Counted from the whole stretch's first letter, positions 21,883 to 47,037 are shown. The stretch is DNA of 59,875 bases, filler included, from Globobulimina sp. (GCA_003354225.1; 14 parts of 14 records of this genome joined end to end with filler, not necessarily neighbours in it), one strand, 5' to 3'. A program made the numbers and translations. Notes: a model not told the origin generated them from the letters alone.

Positions 21883-24800
21883 ATGTCCACCAATGTACCA
21901 CTGTTAACAGCCGATAAAACTGCATATACACCGCATTATGATAATGCTGATCCATTTGAACAAAAAATAAATGAAGAACGTAAATTTGAACGTAGTCCTG
22001 GTTCTGGTGCTGCCAACAGCAAATATAATATTAATATGTCCAATAATTTACGATCAGGTTTGCAATTGATTTAATATCATATTCACTTTAGTTTTACTGA
22101 GAAAAAGCACACACACACAAAGAAAAGGAAATTATGGATTTTTTGGATCGTTACATGTTTACCTTAACCACCACAGACGTTTTATGTATTTATTTTTTAA
22201 GCCCATTGTCGATTTTTTTGAATATTTGCTTCATTTTATATAATATGTATAAACTATTTATTGCCAATGATAATTCATTCATTGTAAATGGCCACAGCCA
22301 AGACACTGACGCTTATTTACTGATTTGTGCAAAAATCGTAACAGGATTTGAATTTGGTGGCCTTTGTATTCTATTACTTACATTGTTTTATATTTATATA
22401 TTCATGAAAAAAACTGAAAATTATGCAGCCTTCATTGATTTATTGGGATTACTTGGTTCGTGGTCTGCATTTAAACTGTTTTATCAATGTAGGCAGAGTG
22501 CCATATTCGAACATGTTTCGACTGTGATTAAAAATAATACACACAATGATAAAAAATATTGTCAAACATTGCAGAAAGAAATAGAAAGACTGGAACAACC
22601 CGTTTGTGATTTTCATATCAAAGAACAGCTCAGCCGCGAATTACAAAAACAATTAGAATCAAATGAGGATCAACACGCAAAGAAACAGAGACGAGGCTTG
22701 AAACAATTTATGACAGAATCTGCCTATGGTTTGGTGATATTATTATTATTTCTGGGCTTATTCATTGGCATATTATCATTATTGATGAAGTTGTCGCAGT
22801 TAAATTTCACCACAACCAAACCACTCAAAGATTGGACTTTATTAAATTGGTTTTACTGTATGGGTTTTTCCAATCAATTATGGAATATGGTGAATATGGA
22901 CCAGTTGAAAACGTTTACAATTTATGAATTTCTATACACAAACAACAGAAACATCTCTGCGTTGACCTCCAAAAAGTTAAAAAAGATGCTATATTTGGAC
23001 AGTTTAGTTAAGACCATACTGTGTACACAATATCGGTGGAAAGGTGTCTTAATATCCGCATACATGCAGTCATCATATATTTTGCAAATATTGCTTAAGA
23101 ATCCATTTCAAAGTGAAAATCCGTCCACTTTTGAAGAATATCAACAATATGAGAACATTAATAAACTCATTGGAATCGGTACCGGTTCGGATGAACAAGA
23201 TTCAGCAATGAGCGTTAACAACAAACACAAAAAGATTCATCACAACCGCTCTGGTACCATTCTCGAGGATGTACTATACAAAGCTTCCAAAGTTATGTCA
23301 GAGGAAAATAAAAAATGGAAACATTTACTTAATTCATATTTAAGTGACTTGAAATTGGAATCATTAACGATAAAGGATCCGATATCCGAGGCGCGATTAT
23401 TTGTGCAAGAGAGCAAAAGCGGTGACATTGTTGATGATATTCAATACAATCATATTAAAATTAAAATTAATACCATGTTCAGCAACTTATCATATTTATT
23501 TGAAAGCATTCAGGATTGGTTGGAAATATCTTTTATTGTCATTATTGTGACAACTATGATATCCTGCATTGTAACCTCGATGTTATCGCTATTTTATTAT
23601 CACGATTTGAGTGCAATGGATTCCTTATGCGAGGAGAGATTAATTTGGTTTGCATTGTGTATTACTATCATATTAATTGTGTCATTATTATTTATATTTA
23701 TTTGTCATGAATGCAAACCAGACAGCAAAACAACACAGAAACTGTTACAGTTAAATGTTGCATTGGTCGCATTATCCATCATTGCTACTTTTTGCATTGA
23801 CATTTTTTCTGATCAGCCGTGTGTTACAAATATTGCACATGACCGCTATCCGCATTATCATATTATACATATAGCGGTCTTAACAAATTTTTCATTGTTG
23901 TTAGTTTTGTTTTTACCAATATTTATTCATTTATTATTCCATCCATTTTATATAATCATTGCTTTGTTGAGCATAATTGGTGCAGCCACATTAATTTCTG
24001 ATGCTGTGTTTACATTTTGTTTGATATGGTTTGTCGTCCAAAATCACAACACATTCAAAGATAGATATGAAAATTATGATTTTTCCGACATCTGCGACAT
24101 TAATTTCACAGTAATTCTTATTATTGGGTGTTATTACACATTTAATATATTATTGTTTTTTCTACGAATGACGTGTACAAATTCAAATAAGTGGCATGCT
24201 TCCAAATGCATTAAGTATATGACATTGACAGTGTATGTTATATTGATGGCCTTATTCATTTATGATAATATGTATTTGACTGAGTCTACATGTGATTTTT
24301 GGCAAAATAATGTTAAAATGTATAACATAACAATGTACAGTGCCGCCCTTTCCTGTATTTTTTGGTTTGTAACATTTTTGATATGTTTTCCGGCGAACAC
24401 AATGAAAGATTTTGAAAGAATTAAGCAAATTAGTGATTTTTTAATGTATCATGCAGCGGCTGTATTTTGTTTGATTTTTATTCATTTAGTTGCGGACATA
24501 ATGGTATTTGCATTATCAATCTATATGTTATATAAACATGACATCATTCATGCAGATGACACATATCATGGTATTAATGTGGCATATAATTGCATTGTAC
24601 TTATGGTTGTATTCTTTAGTTTGGAGATCATATTTACAGCTATACGTTGGTTGGTTGATGGTTATGGATCAATGAAATTTTGTTTATTTATGGGGTATGC
24701 GGCAATGTTTTGCTTAGAATTATTGTATTTTTTAATGATAACAGTAACATGTTTTGGAGTGTTTGGTGTAATTGAATGGATGCATCAATTTAATAATATG

Positions 24801-25115
24801 GAATACAATGTGTTGATAATGTTAATATCTGTTTTGTTATTTGCACAATTTATTGGAATTATGATGCAACGTATCAGAAGAAATAATAACATACAAAATT
24901 GCTTCCAAATTGTAAATCATGACGAATTGCCGGAAGTTGAGAGATTAATAAGTATTGCACATAAAATACCTGCGTTTGCTGTATTGTTAAATCAAGGATT
25001 CATATTTATTTTTGAGGATACATCGATGGAGAGAGCAATATACCTTACTAACTACTCTTTGTTTAGTTTTAGCTTTGCTGTCAATAATTATTGGCAAGTT
25101 GCCATTGATAAGTGA
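21883..25115 (+). CDS. Large multi-pass membrane protein of unknown family (short first exon plus a 993-codon exon)
   Basis: Many hydrophobic segments. Probable intron TCAG|GTTTG...cacaaag at about 22058-22122. Confidence 0.75.
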
Positions 25116-32364: not shown

Positions 32365-34194
32365 ATGAGCAAACGACATTCTCGCTTAATAGAATACTTC
32401 ATAACCGTAGGTATTGAATTCGAATCCGTAGCACCCATCAACGACGACACCATCTCCAACCCGATTCGCGAATTACGCGTCATCTCTGAAAAACAACTGA
32501 TACCCGATGGCTACGAATGCATCAAAACCACCGTCACCGGCAAAGACGCCTCGTTAACCAAAAAATCCATAATGACGAAAAACAACAAACACTATCTCTG
32601 CTACACCCGCTCAATCACCGACACCTTATTCACCCGCATACAATACATCAAAGCCAAACGCATCTCCTCCAAAGGTACCGTAAAATAAAATTATTCGCAA
32701 AATCGCACGTACCAAAAATAACAACAGACACAGAATGGGACCGTGTACCCGGCAAAATAATGTCAGGCAAGACTGAATACTGCCTCTGTACCAAAAACGA
32801 CCGCTCCATCCCACCCATTGCCGACATCTGCATCATCACCGTCGACGGCAAGGAGTCCTGCCCCGACGGCTACGTCAAGCTCCCTGCCACCATCAACGGC
32901 CTCGCCATCTGCTTCCGCCATCTCCCTATGGACGCCTTGGGCCTCCGCTATCAAACCTGCATTCTCGACCGGTACCCACGCAAAGACTACGCCAACAGTC
33001 CTCTGTCAAACACGGTCGCCGTGTTTTGCCAACCTAACGGCGCTGATATACGCGACGAAGCGTCCATGCCCACATTTTTGTCCTTTGTGCTGACCGACAG
33101 TGAAGGCAAGAAGATGTACGCCATCACAGTCACTTTCTACGACAAATTAGATGCCGGGGATGAGCAAGCTTGCATCCGTTCATTGCAACAGATCTACACC
33201 GAGGGCTTCAAACCCATTTGGCCGGTGATGCATGGCGGGAAGTCACTGTATCACAGTAAATCTGTGTGCATTTTATCCTATTATCCCTTTTTTTTGTCGT
33301 TTCGTGAGGTCTTGAAAGAGATTTATCGTTTGGCCAACTCGCCGGGTCGCATTCCTATCGAGCGGTACATCATCAATTTGTGTGAGGAGACGCCGTTGCC
33401 AGTGCCGAGCAAGCGTACTATACAACTTTTGTACGCGCACAAACCGATTACATTCCGTATACCCAATGACGACGAGTTGCCGTTGTTAGATAGCAATATC
33501 AAAAAGATATTTTGTTGCTTGTCGTTGAATAACACGCTGTTGTTATTTAAGGTGTTACTTACGCAGAATTACAAGATATTGTTCACCAGTTCGCATATTT
33601 CGTTAATAACGGAGATCTGCGAGACTTTGACGTCCTTTTTACAGCCGTTTGAGTGGCAATTCACGTACGTCCCGGTGTTGCCGTACAGTGTGTTTGGTAT
33701 ATTAGACGCACCGGTTCCGGTGTTGGTGGGTATGCATTCGAGTAGGATCAAGCCAGACTATTATAGCGACCCTGAGAAGGAGATCATTATCGTGGATTTG
33801 GACAACAATCATGTACATATTCCGCATCATGTGCAGAGTGAATTGATTGATATACCGAGTCACGTGCACAAAGTGCTGAAATCTGATCTGAAACAGTATG
33901 CGAAAGCGAATAAAGTGGCGTTGTTTGATAAGAACACCATCCAGTTTGCGGACAGTGCGTTCACAGTGCAGCTGATGATGGACGACGACGGCTTGCATAT
34001 GAACGGAGTGGACGACACATTCAATCCCATGGCGTGTCGTGCGGCGTTCTATAGGTTCTGGATTAAATTATTGGGCCCCAATTATCAGCAATATCTGCCG
34101 TGCTATGCACAACAGCACTAGGATGAATGCTTTTTTCAAGTTCTTCTTTGGCGCAAAGAAATTGTGCTATTTTTGCATAGGCCAAATAAGGCTT
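32365..34194 (+). CDS. MABP + DENN domain protein (DENND4-like Rab GEF), intron 32675-32727, 3' partial
   Basis: IPDGYECI..T.TG.DASL, LDRYPRKDY, FCQPNG, FVLTD..G..Y, KSVCILS.YPF, PFEWQFTYVPVLP, DAPVPVLVG, VDLD. Confidence 0.9.
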
Positions 34195-42856: not shown

Positions 42857-44767
42857 GACAAGTTCATTTTTTGTGGAATTGATTTCGAATATGTCATGCT
42901 TTTCACACCTCTCCATCTGATAATTCGAAACCGTCAGTGGTTGGCGTCACTTCCCCGACAAAAACGACTTCTAACCAAAGAACTGAGACAGAAATGGTTT
43001 ATGGACATCGGTCAACATATGGAAATTGGCAAGCACCACGACGACATGCTGGGACTCCAATCTGCCATTGAAGATTACGAACGACTTGATCTATTGGACA
43101 TGCTCGATGTAACCGAACGATCTACTTGCGGCCCCTTCATCGCTTGCATTCAGGTATTCTTCCCTGGAGCCCCCCCCATCGTCTGTCGAACCATGGGATG
43201 TGGAGGAGAGCTTCGAGCTGAATGGAGAGAGTTTTTCCTAAATTCCCGGATCGCAAAAGCAGTTGTGGACATTGCTCAGGACTCCGCAGCTTTCGCTAAT
43301 ACTTTCATGGAAGCCATCAGTTGGGAAACCGGAATCATCGACGTTCAGGCCATGTTCAGTTGCAGTGAATTGAAAGCCGGAGGAAAACTTGGGGTACTGG
43401 ACCTTCAGCAGTTGATCGGATCGCCTATGTACACGGGAGGATCTCTAGACGCTAGAGGAAACAAAAAGAAGCATCAACGAGAAAGTTGGCTCTCTACTGG
43501 ACTGTGGGGCAACCCAAATGTCAATATGACTTTCGCCCAAGTTGCTTATGCGATTGGAGATGCTCAAACAGCATACGAAGCAATGGCCACCCTTGGTGCT
43601 TGCATGGCTGAAAAGGTCTACTATATGATCCCCACTCCAAAAGCCGGCAAGAAGGCAAAACGCGGAGAAAAACAAGGAGGACGATTCAGCTACGAGTGTC
43701 ACGTCATGGACAATTTGAGGAGAGTTATTTTCCTGAAAGATAAAGACTTCTACAAACTCTTCCTTTACGAATTGGATGCTCAAAGTGCTAGTTCGACCAA
43801 GCAAGGATGGAGAAAATGGGTTCGTGCTGGTTATGATGAGGCCTTACGGCCCGTGGTTTATCACATCCGAGAGAAACAAGACTATTTGATGGATAAAGTG
43901 GAAAATAGTTTGCGACTCGAAGACTCCATCAGCTATCGAAGTATTTGGAACGACTACGTCCGAGGCATGCGATCAGAATGGAAATGTATTGGACATTCGT
44001 ATCGACTAATTGCTATGCAAGACCAAGTCATTCGAAGACGCCGATTCCGAGAATCCAAAGTGGGAATGTTTGGAACACAACGACATTGCTTTGAAACCAA
44101 AAAGGGTGAACATCACGAATGGGGACCTTGTGGACCACAAGGACAAGGAAAGTTGTCAATGATATTTGAATTTTGCCATGATCCCTCTGGAAGAACGGGC
44201 GGTGGAGAAGAAGTAGTCCGAATCGGTCATACCATTGGACAACAACTCACTCGGTCCCGACACGAACAGTTAAAACTCTACGGCCAAGAGGAAATCGATC
44301 GACTCAAAGACATGCATTGGATGGACGGTATAATGGGCATGTTGTTCAGAATGGAAAATTGGATGGGAAGTTTGCGATGGCGCCCTCGCAACACCGCTGA
44401 TGTGTACACCTTCTGCGACACGGTCAACAGGTTTAAAAAGATCTTGGAGAAAACTCGAAACCCCCACCGTCGAGAAACCAGTGCTCATCAACTGCGGGTA
44501 CTCCAGATAGCTCGACCGGCCGATTATATTTGGGGAGAACAATACGAAGCCAATCAAACGATCCAAAGTTGGATATGGCGCATGAGCGACGTGTCTGCCC
44601 GAACTGACACCCAGTTGTACCTTCTTAACTTGTCCAAAGCCATTGCTAGTGAAACTCGACCCTATCAGCTCAAAATGATGAAGATGCAACGGGACAAACT
44701 GGAACACTGGTCTCAGACAATCATTTATGATGGAGGACGAATCCAGTTCGCAAACCAAGAACGCTGA
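42857..44767 (+). CDS. DEDDy 3'-5' exonuclease (WRN/RNase D-like) domain protein, 5' partial; ORF1 of a putative element
   Basis: The frame is open from the edge: DKFIFCGIDFEY (ExoI), IACIQV, KAVVDIAQD (ExoII), W...QVAYAIGDA (ExoIII YxxxD). Confidence 0.8.
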   Translation, partial: DKFIFCGIDFEYVMLFTPLHLIIRNRQWLASLPRQKRLLTKELRQKWFMDIGQHMEIGKHHDDMLGLQSAIEDYERLDLLDMLDVTERSTCGPFIACIQVFFPGAPPIVCRTMGCGGELRAEWREFFLNSRIAKAVVDIAQDSAAFANTFMEAISWETGIIDVQAMFSCSELKAGGKLGVLDLQQLIGSPMYTGGSLDARGNKKKHQRESWLSTGLWGNPNVNMTFAQVAYAIGDAQTAYEAMATLGACMAEKVYYMIPTPKAGKKAKRGEKQGGRFSYECHVMDNLRRVIFLKDKDFYKLFLYELDAQSASSTKQGWRKWVRAGYDEALRPVVYHIREKQDYLMDKVENSLRLEDSISYRSIWNDYVRGMRSEWKCIGHSYRLIAMQDQVIRRRRFRESKVGMFGTQRHCFETKKGEHHEWGPCGPQGQGKLSMIFEFCHDPSGRTGGGEEVVRIGHTIGQQLTRSRHEQLKLYGQEEIDRLKDMHWMDGIMGMLFRMENWMGSLRWRPRNTADVYTFCDTVNRFKKILEKTRNPHRRETSAHQLRVLQIARPADYIWGEQYEANQTIQSWIWRMSDVSARTDTQLYLLNLSKAIASETRPYQLKMMKMQRDKLEHWSQTIIYDGGRIQFANQER

Positions 44768-47037
44768 ATTACCGACCCCCACAAAGTTCTTGAGAAACTT
44801 CCGATCAAACCATCAACTGCCACCACAAATGATCGACTCGAAATTTCACTCGTAGTAACCTTGCCGGAACTAAGCAGAGAGGCCGCCTTGGTAGACCAAA
44901 AACGGTTTGAAGAATCAGAAGACGCCATTCGAAATTTCCACGTAGAAGGACGTCTGGCAGAACTCTTACAAGGAACTCACTTGACCGACGGGGAACCCAA
45001 AGATGGAAGAACATTAGTTGTTCGAGCTCGAAAAGACGACCTTACGGTCCATTCATCAGATGAATCTGGGGATGAAGAACCGACTATACGACCTGGTGAA
45101 GAACCAACCGACATAACGGAAGAGGGGACATTTATCGATATCAACAATGAAATAAACATCTTGACTTACCTTGACCACCCGGAATTAGATCGAATCGAAG
45201 CCCCATCTCAACGTCAAATTCTCGAAATGTTGGAGAAGCAGGATTATGAAGACCACCGATACCATGGTCCCCCCTCATCTGAAAGCCGAAATCGACTCGT
45301 GGGAAGAAGCAATGCTTGGAGACGACAGCCAGATACCGAAATCCGCTCAGTCGTGACAACCGTTCCAAATCGTGACGGACGTTCGAGGCGTCGTTCCCCG
45401 CCGATACAAAGGACTAGACGAACTGACCCTCTATCCATAACCATAAAGAAAAGTCGCCAAACACGTCAAGAAAGAAATGAACAAGAATATCATCGAACGG
45501 TGCGAAAACGAGAAAGGGAACAAGAAGTACAAGAAAATGCATTGCCTTGTCCACCCTCTCCACCACCAAGAGACAGTGGCCCTACCTTGCCTAAATTTCC
45601 TCGACGAAAATTCACAGATTTACCTGTATTTTTACGTCTCAAAGCCAGTGAAAAGAGGAATAAAGAAACGACTTTCCCCGCACCACCTGATTGTGTTCCG
45701 GAGGATCCAAGCGAACCCTTCCTTCACCCATTTGGAGTATTCAGCCAAGAAGAGATGATAACGGGATCCTGGTTTCCAGACGAACCTCGTCCACCTCTCT
45801 CGAAGACCGAACCGATGCCACCCTTTCAGTCATACGATGACGCAGACGTGCCCCAATTCAATCGATCTGCCTTGCTAGAATTACGAGCCAAAGCCATTCA
45901 ACTGTCCAGAAACGAGACGACCGTCGGACCTCAGTTCAAACCCGATGGTTACTTCGACTACTTGCCCAATAGTCTCTTGTTACCGGACGCCGAGAAAATG
46001 CATCCCCTTACGGGGCTTCAATCACTCAGTTATGTTCACGGCGAAGAAAAGGCATTTGCTCTTCGAAATGTTTACCGAGAAAAGATATCTGGAAACATTT
46101 TCTACCTCAACCCTCATACTTCCGAAAAACGACCAATGATGAACCCTTCTATCCCGTCAGCCGGAATTGGTGGATATTTTCCGCCCCTACCTTTGGCTTG
46201 GAGATTCTCTCAGTTGGGAGTCCTTGTTTCCGAACTAGAAGCACTATTTCCAGGATGGGACGTGAAACAACTTACAAATATCATCTATTGGCACCAACCG
46301 CAAACAACGCGCGACATGTGGGAGGCAATTGCCGGATCAGTAGAAACCATTCATGACGTTATGCTCGACTTTGACATGGAACATTGTCATCAATCCAAAG
46401 CCCGTGTTCTGATAGCCCGAAGTTTTCGAGCACTGCAACTCTATCGTCGAGGCTGTGAATTGGATACAAGAAACGACTTCATGTACAAACCAGGAGCTCA
46501 GAAAATGAACAATTATGAAGCCGGCGAATTCAACAAATTGTTTGCCAAAAGTACTGAAGCATTCCAAGCAACCAGACGTATTCAGATGTACTTGGAAGGA
46601 GCAAGGGATTCCGTCCCGGCAGAACGCTTCTTAGGTCTCAACACGAAAAACTCAATCGACCTCATTTCCGGCCGTCAAAATTGGTTAGAACCAAACGGGA
46701 AAATGTCAACCGAAAGACAGAACACCGTATCCAAGAGACATATCGAAAAAGATGATTTGACCTACACAGAATTCGTCAAGAAGTCTAATTACGGTATTTG
46801 CCACATTCATTATTATTATCTCAAATGGAAACAAACTTGGGCTGGACTACAAAACGCCTCCGTTGCTCATCTTGCTGCGGCCATAATAGCTCAAGGAGAA
46901 TTACGGGTGAATCTCTATGGGAACCTCCCAGCCATCCATCATGTGGAATCCTGTTACGACAAAGCTATTGACGCTGGATTGACCGCCTTTGCCGACCATT
47001 GTCGTGAAGAACGCTTCGACCCTGTTGCAGCTCATGC
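44768..47037 (+). CDS. In-frame continuation after the TGA (756 codons, 3' partial): Arg/Pro-rich disordered region plus an unknown globular region
   Basis: No stop from 44768 to the contig end, same frame as ORF1. The first ATG lies well over 100 codons downstream. Confidence 0.75.

Follow-up and report, generated by a model that had tools for sequence, protein, structure and literature searches.

The contig at positions 42857 to 47037 of the analysed window encodes part of a giant protein that, judged by comparison with its relatives, appears to belong to a previously unnamed and very sparsely sampled family with a full-length relative of 2,640 residues or more, and the first ~250 residues of this protein are predicted to form a divergent RNase D/WRN-type DEDDy 3'-5' exonuclease. 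We assign a joint probability of about 0.85 to this core reading, namely that the gene is real, that it carries a DEDDy domain and that the family is new. The window, a 59,875-nt stretch from a Globobulimina sp. assembly, consists of 14 size-sorted contigs with N/TTAATTAATTAA spacers between them. The 4,181-nt target is one of these contigs, and we flag it as a likely non-host contig in that assembly. If the core reading is right, this protein family is invisible to standard annotation yet retains an intact DEDDy active site in a protein 2,640 or more residues long. The features of the target are as follows.

42857-47037, + strand: whole target contig, an internal piece (1,393 codons) of a much larger gene, with both ends open
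42857-43606, + strand: predicted divergent RNase D/WRN-type DEDDy 3'-5' exonuclease domain, residues 1-250 (hhalign, ESM atlas); its N-terminal edge may be truncated by the contig end
42875-42892, + strand: ExoI, GIDFEY (D9, E11; residues 7-12), with the pattern h-h-D-x-E-h in all three members that reach it
42899-43120, + strand: family-specific insert of ~75 residues (~15-88) that separates the ExoI strand from the second strand (family alignment, hhalign masking)
43265-43282, + strand: ExoII, VDIAQD (residues 137-142), with catalytic D142 at 43280-43282 invariant in 7 of 7 members
43334-43348, + strand: IIDVQ strand, counterpart of the 'fDTQ' strand of RNase D; D162 is invariant (7 of 7) and aligns with the template D-T-Q
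43547-43564, + strand: ExoIII, YAIGDA (Y231, D235; residues 231-236), aligned with Y-A-x-x-D-V of RNase D
43607-44080, + strand: basic helical region after the exonuclease, within the BLASTP segment common to P0004
44765-44767, + strand: single in-frame TGA, codon 637, with the same sequence in a run contig that spans it
44957-45856, + strand: low-complexity linker, acidic (~701-800) and then Arg/Lys- and Pro-rich (~801-1000), from 50-residue composition windows
45899-46474, + strand: conserved core of the C-terminal domain with GIGG and YWHQP motifs (BLASTP against P0008 and P0004)
46475-47035, + strand: rest of the C-terminal region, truncated by the contig end, frame open to the last base and without matches

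The frame that begins at 42857 contains one stop, compared with 54 and 55 in the other two forward frames and 40-75 in the reverse frames, and 1000 shuffles of the contig gave a mean of 73.6 stops with a minimum of 46. The contig is protein-coding both 5' and 3' of the TGA. An earlier account of this DNA made from the sequence alone (the sequence-only reading) had described a single open frame; both ends are indeed open, but the frame is interrupted once, by the TGA. Its label of 'polyprotein' for the ORF is an assumption only. The contig ends fall within the ORF, so the flanks and termini lie off the contig. An exact look-up of the 623-aa ATG-started target ORF and of five neighbouring ORFs found none of them in the protein collection.

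An exhaustive phmmer search against 1.84 billion protein representatives recovered seven relatives at E ≤ 1e-3, all of which are metagenomic singleton clusters that are unnamed or called 'hypothetical', and a profile search added one further relative, the fragment P0012. The target is collinear with residues 1236-2339 of the 2,640-aa relative P0004 in two separate blocks, the first of which pairs target residues 4-408 with P0004 residues 1236-1641 (BLASTP E 2e-25). Long intronless frames are found in these two members (4.2 kb in the target and at least 7.9 kb in P0004), and the P0004 record is an 8,414-nt contig that is open at its 5' end and extends ~490 nt beyond the ORF. Word-index homology searches of 5.8 billion clusters returned nothing for either half of the target protein. 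The sequence-only reading had named a full-length cellular ortholog as the case opposed to its own; neither the 5.8-billion-cluster nor the 1.84-billion-protein search gave a named full-length EXD/Mut-7/WRN orthologue from annotated eukaryotic genomes, and the phmmer relatives are the seven unnamed metagenomic proteins only. When the target protein and its relatives were compared with Pfam, PDB sequences, PHROGs and NCBIfam, no match was credible apart from sub-threshold PF01612 matches in the relatives. A Pfam match of the target protein to Phage_holin_9 is at chance level (E 0.22 and 0.11; 11.8-12.8 bits, where the cut-off is 27). DNA of the relatives was not found in IMG/VR or JGI metagenome contigs, tblastn against phages and plasmids gave no match, and our literature searches returned no description of this protein family. 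A tblastn match of P0004 at 24514-24651 (E 0.019), within a neighbouring ORF for a hydrophobic multi-pass membrane protein, was taken as chance.

All five predicted catalytic residues (D9, E11, D142, Y231 and D235) are present in the target and are kept in most of the relatives that cover them. In the members that reach ExoI the motif reads GIDFEY (target), GMDTEF (P0010) and AMDVEY (P0004), and D142 of the target lines up with the Asp of ExoII in E. coli RNase D. ExoIII is Y-x3-D in the target, P0009 and P0010 and Y-x3-E in P0004, so that all four aligned members have Y-x3-D/E. An hhalign comparison of the family profile with 32 PF01612 domains gave Prob 94.5 and E 7.6e-8 over 148 columns with the catalytic residues in register, as contrasted with Prob 0.2 and 0.1 (E 0.29 and 0.57) in reversed controls. 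The three DEDDy motifs picked out by the sequence-only reading are in their places and are backed both by family conservation and by this profile-profile comparison. The long insert that it had seen after ExoI, ahead of the IACIQV strand (residues 95-100), is likewise common to several relatives, being present and partly conserved in the target, P0004, P0010, P0005 and P0012. When the insert was masked the hhalign score rose from 55.7 to 64.5 (Prob 96.5, E 9.8e-10) and ExoI met the template D-T-E-F; without masking the template ExoI falls on a non-conserved LDVTE. In the ESM atlas, the exonuclease domain had 25 of 30 matches in the PF01612 set, with a score of 0.90.

The target sequence itself matched no Pfam family at E ≤ 10 and hence lies below the PF01612 gathering cut-off, while three of the seven relatives had sub-threshold PF01612 matches, the best with E 0.0013 and 19 bits (cut-off 23.6). 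With a single RNase D sequence as the template, hhalign gave a Prob of only 20.7%. A profile of the exonuclease block had chance-level ankyrin matches only among PDB sequences (E 0.084), and the family HMMER profile found no match in the E. coli K-12 chromosome, which encodes RNase D and PolA. The exonuclease domain was visible to profile-profile comparison alone. Two AlphaFold2 models, that of the exonuclease (mean pLDDT 42.9) and a second one (34.0), were unusable and do not confirm the fold; the order of strands and helices in the exonuclease model would be compatible with a DnaQ-like alpha/beta fold, but its quality is too low for a fold search.

The remainder of the protein follows the layout given by the sequence-only reading, with unassigned regions, a disordered Arg/Pro-rich linker (RSRRRSPP at residue 842 and PPSPPP at residue 899) and a second conserved region. 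BLASTP found no homology between the linker and the relatives. The C-terminal block matches P0008 (BLASTP E 6e-21) and residues 2179-2339 of P0004 (E 6e-9), and tblastn agrees for both. Matches of the C-terminal core in the ESM atlas were all below 0.9 and offer helical-repeat leads only. None of the Walker A, polymerase (including Y-x-D-D), zinc-finger or nuclease signatures scanned for is conserved among the members.

The target contig looks foreign to the AT-rich genome that was assembled alongside it. As the sequence-only reading had stated, it is GC-richer than the 13 other contigs (0.466 compared with 0.29-0.39) and rich in CGA, which accounts for 53 of the 116 Arg codons in the frame; its codon use also differs from that of its neighbours. 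The two halves of the target correlate in codon use with each other at 0.63 and the target correlates with neighbouring ORFs at 0.0 and 0.27, whereas neighbouring ORFs correlate among themselves at about 0.5-0.69. TpA observed/expected is 0.51 in the target and 0.60-0.82 in the other contigs. Composition alone is nevertheless weak proof of foreignness, because the neighbouring ORFs are heterogeneous too: a DENN ORF at 32517-34121, on a host-like contig, has a GC of 0.475 and correlates in codon use with the rest at 0.03.

Several variants of the target, 0-8% diverged, coexist in the source sequencing run. Thirty run contigs aligned to the target, 15 of them at least 99% alike, 8 at 95-99% and 7 at 90-95%, in an alignment that has no cover in the bin 45377-45516. 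Two further runs of the same sample (X2 and X3) gave no aligned contigs, which we do not count as absence, and no RNA run is listed as containing the target. The variants fall into classes of 0, ~1-3% and 6-8% divergence, and at least three divergence classes in one run imply more than two alleles. Among the 40 variant sites listed (72 further sites accompany these), 31 are at third codon positions and 31 are synonymous, and they lie on both sides of the TGA. Such variants, under purifying selection, would be just as expected from paralogues or from mixed strains of a cellular gene.

As to the carrier of this gene, our whole explanation, which includes a large selfish element or DNA virus, is tentative and in our estimate falls somewhat short of even odds. 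The source would be a multi-copy or multi-strain entity, compositionally distinct from the AT-rich genome and most likely a large selfish element or DNA virus. The exonuclease-bearing giant protein would serve this entity as an accessory and not as its replicase, and the exonuclease, tethered in a large scaffold, may trim RNA or single-stranded DNA of the entity itself at the 3' end. If this is true, the gene is a marker for locating the remainder of the element or virus. Pfam, PHROGs, NCBIfam and PDB searches found no polymerase, RT, RdRp, integrase, transposase, helicase or capsid in the target protein or P0004, in agreement with the sequence-only reading, which had likewise seen none of RT, integrase, capsid and RdRp. 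A search for RT families was negative for the 1,393 target residues, with 4.2 kb of the entity visible, and for P0004, P0010 and P0008, and the target contig, both ends of which lie inside the ORF, has no repeats >20 nt and no Rfam match, hammerhead ribozyme included. The earlier assignment to a retroelement or virus therefore found no replicase, integrase, capsid, terminal repeat or ribozyme to stand on in the 1,393 codons or in P0004. Because no polymerase, integrase, capsid or repeat was found in either sequence, the carrier is left among virus, mobile element and other organism.

This same lack of any element or virus hallmark in 1,393 or 2,640 residues agrees with an ordinary cellular gene for a giant scaffold with an RNase D-like domain, belonging to a poorly sampled micro-eukaryote collected together with the AT-rich organism (as prey, symbiont or contaminant), in which case the variants would be alleles, paralogues or strains and the relatives protist orthologues. 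The eukaryote-style low-complexity linkers in the target and P0004, the P0004 record, which with its open 5' end and post-ORF sequence could be mRNA-like, the composition unlike that of the neighbours and the mostly synonymous substitutions all fit such a gene. It has to be set against these points that there are at least three divergence classes in one run, that the frame contains a TGA, that intronless frames of 4.2 and 7.9 kb are atypical of most eukaryotic cellular genes, and that only 7 relatives, none of them from an annotated genome, occur among 1.84 billion representatives. On balance we consider a cellular origin of this kind rather unlikely. If the gene is instead a cellular one from an unsampled protist, it would show an RNase D-like enzyme in a new architecture.

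It is less probable still, and we regard it as quite improbable, that the gene or gene family is that of the AT-rich organism itself, as a GC-richer host gene or resident repeat family. Host ORFs do reach the GC of 0.475 seen in the DENN ORF, which equals the target as a codon-use outlier, and they are likewise long and uninterrupted. Host ORFs also use TGA as a stop in 5 of 16 cases, so a simple nonsense mutation in one copy could account for the TGA in the target. The entire 4.2 kb is GC-rich, however, with no AT-rich flank on the contig, and its codon use is unlike both that of typical host ORFs and that of the DENN outlier (GGA 0.61 compared with 0.06, CGA 0.46 compared with 0.04), as is its TpA ratio when set beside those of the other contigs.

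We propose that the TGA may be leaky and would set the ratio of a short N-terminal product to the full-length product, or else that it marks a defective copy. The same frame continues for 756 codons past the TGA, and its first in-frame ATG lies 154 codons on from the TGA. No stable RNA structure was found 3' of the TGA (z +1.3; 179 of 200 shuffled sequences folded equally well or better), and Rfam models including SECIS gave no match on the target contig, the 3' UTR where a SECIS would sit being off the contig. That the source organism decodes TGA as an amino acid (e.g. Trp, Cys or Sec), which would make the target one uninterrupted frame, agrees with the 756 open codons (153 of them before the next in-frame ATG), with a post-TGA part that is conserved in relatives and varies mostly synonymously and with the lack of a break between the two blocks of P0004, but this too is quite improbable given only 1 TGA against 27 TGG in the target frame, a 2,640-aa P0004 called without any TGA under a standard-type code, and the SECIS/Rfam and RNA-structure results above. 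In its boldest form our proposal is that the family stands for a new eukaryotic virus or giant mobile element lineage, in whose genome one giant protein (2,600 residues or more) predominates. That protein would have no recognisable replicase, its RNase D-like exonuclease would be active and carry a unique insert, and in this member a leaky TGA would split an enzymatic N-terminal product from a read-through product with the conserved C-terminal domain; taken as a package this seems unlikely.

The target family is like the RNase D/WRN-exonuclease/Mut-7 group (PF01612, DNA_pol_A_exo1) in its ExoI-ExoII-ExoIII order, its five catalytic residues and its 'fDxQ' strand. Unlike that group, it scores under the Pfam cut-off, carries the ~75-residue insert after ExoI, is without an HRDC, helicase or MUT7-C domain, and has its exonuclease embedded centrally in a protein that is 2,640 or more residues long and otherwise without a known domain. 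DEDD-superfamily exonucleases inside a very large viral protein are represented by nidovirus ExoN and arenavirus NP, which are DEDDh enzymes. The target family differs from these RNA-virus exonucleases in that it has a Tyr in ExoIII, no RdRp or helicase was found, and the contig comes from a genomic DNA assembly.

Egalitarian is a large cellular protein with an RNase D-like scaffold domain. EXD1, EXD2 and Maelstrom, named in PMC5408684 and in the abstract of PMC6648332, are of this kind, and like them the target would hold an exonuclease-fold module within a protein that is larger and for the most part non-enzymatic. PMC5408684 describes EXD1 and Maelstrom as inactive derivatives, unlike the target with its intact catalytic residues, and homology searches found no sequence relationship between such proteins and the target.

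Among selfish elements DEDDy exonucleases are rare as accessory genes, and the rotifer retroelements are the described case. According to PMC5408684 and PMC6431247, the Juno/Vesta LTR retrotransposons and the Athena/Terminon elements of bdelloid rotifers carry an accessory RNase D-like DEDDy ORF3, for which a role in 3'-end processing of RNA or ssDNA is proposed, and these ORFs show 'strong homology' to DEDDy exonucleases and adjoin an RT, an integrase or the Athena RT. In contrast, the homology of the target is detectable profile-to-profile only, no RT and no hammerhead ribozyme or other Rfam match was found, and its exonuclease lies inside a giant frame and not in a separate ORF3. The replacement of the last Asp by Glu in P0004 is a point of likeness, as the rotifer ORFs show a DEDD to DEED change (PMC5408684, PMC6431247). 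Should a selfish element prove to be the carrier here, it would be a second case, unrelated to that of the rotifers, and would bear on the need of such elements for 3'-end trimming.

In the frame that begins at 42857 the target contig contains a single stop codon, compared with 54 and 55 stops in the other two forward frames, 40–75 in the three reverse frames, and a mean of 73.6 (minimum 46) in 1000 shuffles of the contig. The sequence-only reading had described the whole contig as one open frame; it is indeed coding with both ends open, though that reading overlooked the one in-frame TGA. The features we refer to are as follows, with residues numbered as codons from 42857.

42857–47037, forward strand: target contig, eleventh of the 14 contigs in the window
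Residues ~260–410: basic, predicted helical region, common to the metagenomic relative P0004
44765–44767, forward strand: single in-frame TGA, codon 637
3′ of the TGA: acidic stretch, then an Arg/Lys- and Pro-rich stretch, assigned by composition and lacking homology
From about residue 1000: conserved C-terminal block with GIGG and YWHQP motifs, common to P0004 and a second metagenomic relative, P0008

The 59,875-base window is made up of 14 size-sorted contigs of 4,179–4,189 nt each with spacers of the form N/TTAATTAATTAA/N. Because the contigs are merely sorted by size and joined by spacers, the window is not one locus and its neighbouring contigs provide no synteny information. These neighbours are AT-rich, with long ORFs free of interruptions that encode typical eukaryotic proteins, among them a two-domain ion channel, a DENN protein, eRF1 and a cation-efflux protein; the ORFs end in TAA, TAG or TGA, the last in 5 of 16 examined. 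The target contig is GC-richer and CGA-rich as had been noted, with a GC content of 0.466 against 0.29–0.39 in the neighbours and CGA at 53 of its 116 Arg codons, and its frame avoids G at third codon positions. Codon use agrees between the two halves of the frame (r 0.63) and among the neighbouring ORFs (r about 0.5–0.69), while comparison of the target halves with the neighbouring ORFs gives mean r values of 0.0 and 0.27. The target contig is probably non-host. Composition alone does not prove foreign origin, however, since one neighbouring ORF, that of the DENN protein (32517–34121, forward strand), deviates as well, with GC 0.475, GC3 0.61 and a codon use (GGC, GCG, CGT) unlike that of the remaining host ORFs (mean r 0.03). 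A typical AT-rich ORF lies on the same contig, and the DENN ORF could be either a host gene with strong bias or the result of a mis-join. Two antisense ORFs inside the target frame (44270–44782, reverse strand, 170 aa; 43445–43804, reverse strand, 119 aa) are taken as by-products of the codon bias of the sense frame.

Searches of Pfam, PDB sequences, PHROGs and NCBIfam gave no credible match to either half of the target protein. The only row, a Pfam match to Phage_holin_9, is at chance level (E 0.22 and 0.11; 11.8–12.8 bits against a cut-off of 27). Word-index homology searches of 5.8 billion clusters likewise returned zero relatives. We then queried 1.84 billion representatives exhaustively by phmmer, using the first 1,200 residues of the target and reading the TGA as W solely to bridge the stop, and recovered seven proteins at E≤1e-3. 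Each of the seven forms a singleton cluster of metagenomic origin; one bears the label 'hypothetical protein' and the others are nameless. A profile search added one fragment. Identity between members is 23–37%. No relatives were found in IMG/VR or in phage and plasmid collections, and literature searches turned up no description of the family.

The longest relative, P0004, has 2,640 residues without a start and nearly fills its 8,414-nt contig. Its residues 1236–1641 align with target residues 4–408 (E 2e-25) and its residues 2179–2339 with target residues 1001–1161 (E 6e-9). These two collinear blocks indicate that the target contig covers the middle to C-terminal portion of a gene that is at least twice as long. 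The 776-aa P0010, a third relative, shares the exonuclease block and also matches P0004 upstream of that block, while the 590-aa P0008 is similar to the target over the C-terminal block (E 6e-21). The N-terminal half of P0004 shows, by eye, internal repeats at residues ~145–260 and ~750–830, comprising a ~35-residue unit opening M-S-x-x-D-Y-E-K-Y-I that occurs twice and recurrent short S-K-Q-I-D units, none of which is covered by a known domain. A weak tblastn match (E 0.019) between P0004 and a very hydrophobic 993-aa ORF of the window (22134–25115, forward strand), which has no Pfam family and is probably a multi-pass membrane protein, is probably due to chance.

The exonuclease domain went undetected in a Pfam search of the target sequence, and sub-threshold matches to PF01612 (DNA_pol_A_exo1, the RNase D/WRN/Mut-7 group) occur in three of seven members (best E 0.0013). 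All motifs quoted in the sequence-only reading were found at their places, and those of the DEDDy active site are conserved in the family alignment. The ExoI pattern h-h-D-x-E-h (GIDFEY in the target) is kept in all three members that reach it, D142 at the ExoII position and D162 in the 'fDxQ' strand are invariant in 7/7 members, and ExoIII reads Y-x3-D in the target and two relatives and Y-x3-E in P0004. When a profile of 32 aligned PF01612 domains from bacterial genomes was compared with the family exonuclease block by hhalign, the match reached 94.5% probability (E 7.6e-8, 148 columns) and aligned D142 with the Asp of ExoII and Y231/D235 with the Y-x3-D of ExoIII, compared with 0.2% and 0.1% for reversed-alignment controls. 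Motif conservation and this contrast with the controls support the DEDDy assignment. The same register was obtained against E. coli RNase D alone (20.7%, E 1.1e-3). An HMMER profile of the family had zero matches in the E. coli chromosome, so the relationship to known DEDDy enzymes is remote. As a lead only, 25 of the 30 nearest clusters in a protein-language-model search belong to the PF01612 set (score 0.90). AlphaFold2 models were too poor for a fold assignment, with pLDDT values of 42.9 for the first 420 residues (8-sequence alignment) and 34.0 for the last 445 (3 sequences).

A long insert had been proposed between ExoI and the IACIQV strand. Without masking, hhalign placed the template D-T-E-F on the non-conserved LDVTE at residues 83–87. 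Masking residues 15–88 raised the score from 55.7 to 64.5 (E 9.8e-10, probability 96.5%) and brought ExoI into register, the alignment now beginning at residue 5 (template column 37) with D9 and E11 on the template Asp and Glu. This agrees with the proposed insert, which is partly conserved in five members. Elsewhere in the protein, residues ~410–640 have no match, helical-repeat proteins are the nearest language-model neighbours of the C-terminal block, with every score under 0.9, and a motif scan found no Walker A, polymerase, integrase or zinc-finger signature conserved across members.

No further stop interrupts the 756 codons downstream of the TGA, the 154th of which is the first in-frame ATG, and the other two forward frames contain 11 and 8 stops in the 150-codon stretch before this ATG. 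The public run X1 contains 0.61 of the sampled words of the target contig, and 30 pieces of its contigs align to the target, 15 at ≥99%, 8 at 95–99% and 7 at 90–95% identity. One site is covered twice, by an identical piece and by a piece with 19 differences in 241 nt. Two further runs from this sample yielded no aligning pieces, which does not establish that the sequence is missing from them. Among the 40 variant differences listed (there are 72 more), 31 are at third positions, and 31 are synonymous and 9 nonsynonymous; they fall on both sides of the TGA. These variant classes and their mostly synonymous differences show that several diverged copies or strains coexist under purifying selection. 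The conservation of the part after the TGA, together with this variation, indicates translation of that part in some copies at least.

The TGA could possibly be a read-through site, a nonsense change in one copy or a reassigned codon. The run contig that spans it is identical to the window, no stable RNA structure lies 3′ of it (z +1.3), and an Rfam search of the contig matched no family. Routine use of TGA for Trp is disfavoured by one TGA against 27 TGG codons in the frame. P0004 has no break between its two matching blocks. P0008, on a 3,243-nt contig, starts with Met ~170 residues before the C-terminal block, a start that might correspond to a comparable break; in this member the C-terminal module could have an ORF of its own, in parallel to the TGA split of the target.

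Collectively, we conclude with a probability of about 0.85 that the contig is a real gene fragment, that the giant proteins to which its product belongs form a new and sparsely sampled family, and that it encodes an intact, divergent RNase D-type DEDDy exonuclease with a family-specific insert. As to its carrier, we tentatively favour a selfish element or DNA virus because of the long intronless frames in two members, the presence of several variants under selection in a single run, an in-frame stop like those of read-through sites or dead copies, the very fast divergence between members and a composition unlike that of the neighbours. Against this, no replicase, integrase or capsid was found in the 1,393 target residues or the 2,640 of P0004, and relatives are missing from the viral, phage and plasmid collections. 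These data agree nearly as well with a cellular gene from an unsampled protist that was co-sampled, which we consider only somewhat less likely. A gene family of the host, whose ORFs differ in codon use from the target, is improbable.

The find is a hidden protein family, and what carries it could be new. Judging from RNase D-type enzymes and the DEDDy ORFs of rotifer retroelements, the nuclease, held in a large scaffold, might trim RNA or single-stranded DNA at the 3′ end, a role that PMC5408684 proposes for the rotifer ORFs. The target domain resembles RNase D, WRN-exo and Mut-7 in its motifs and in the profile–profile comparison and would work alike, but differs in falling below the Pfam threshold and in its unusual insert and context. 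Compared with the Juno, Vesta and Terminon DEDDy ORFs, which PMC5408684 and PMC6431247 describe as strongly similar to cellular DEDDy enzymes and as lying beside RT, the target shows neither that strong similarity nor an adjoining RT; these rotifer ORFs are its nearest functional analogy.
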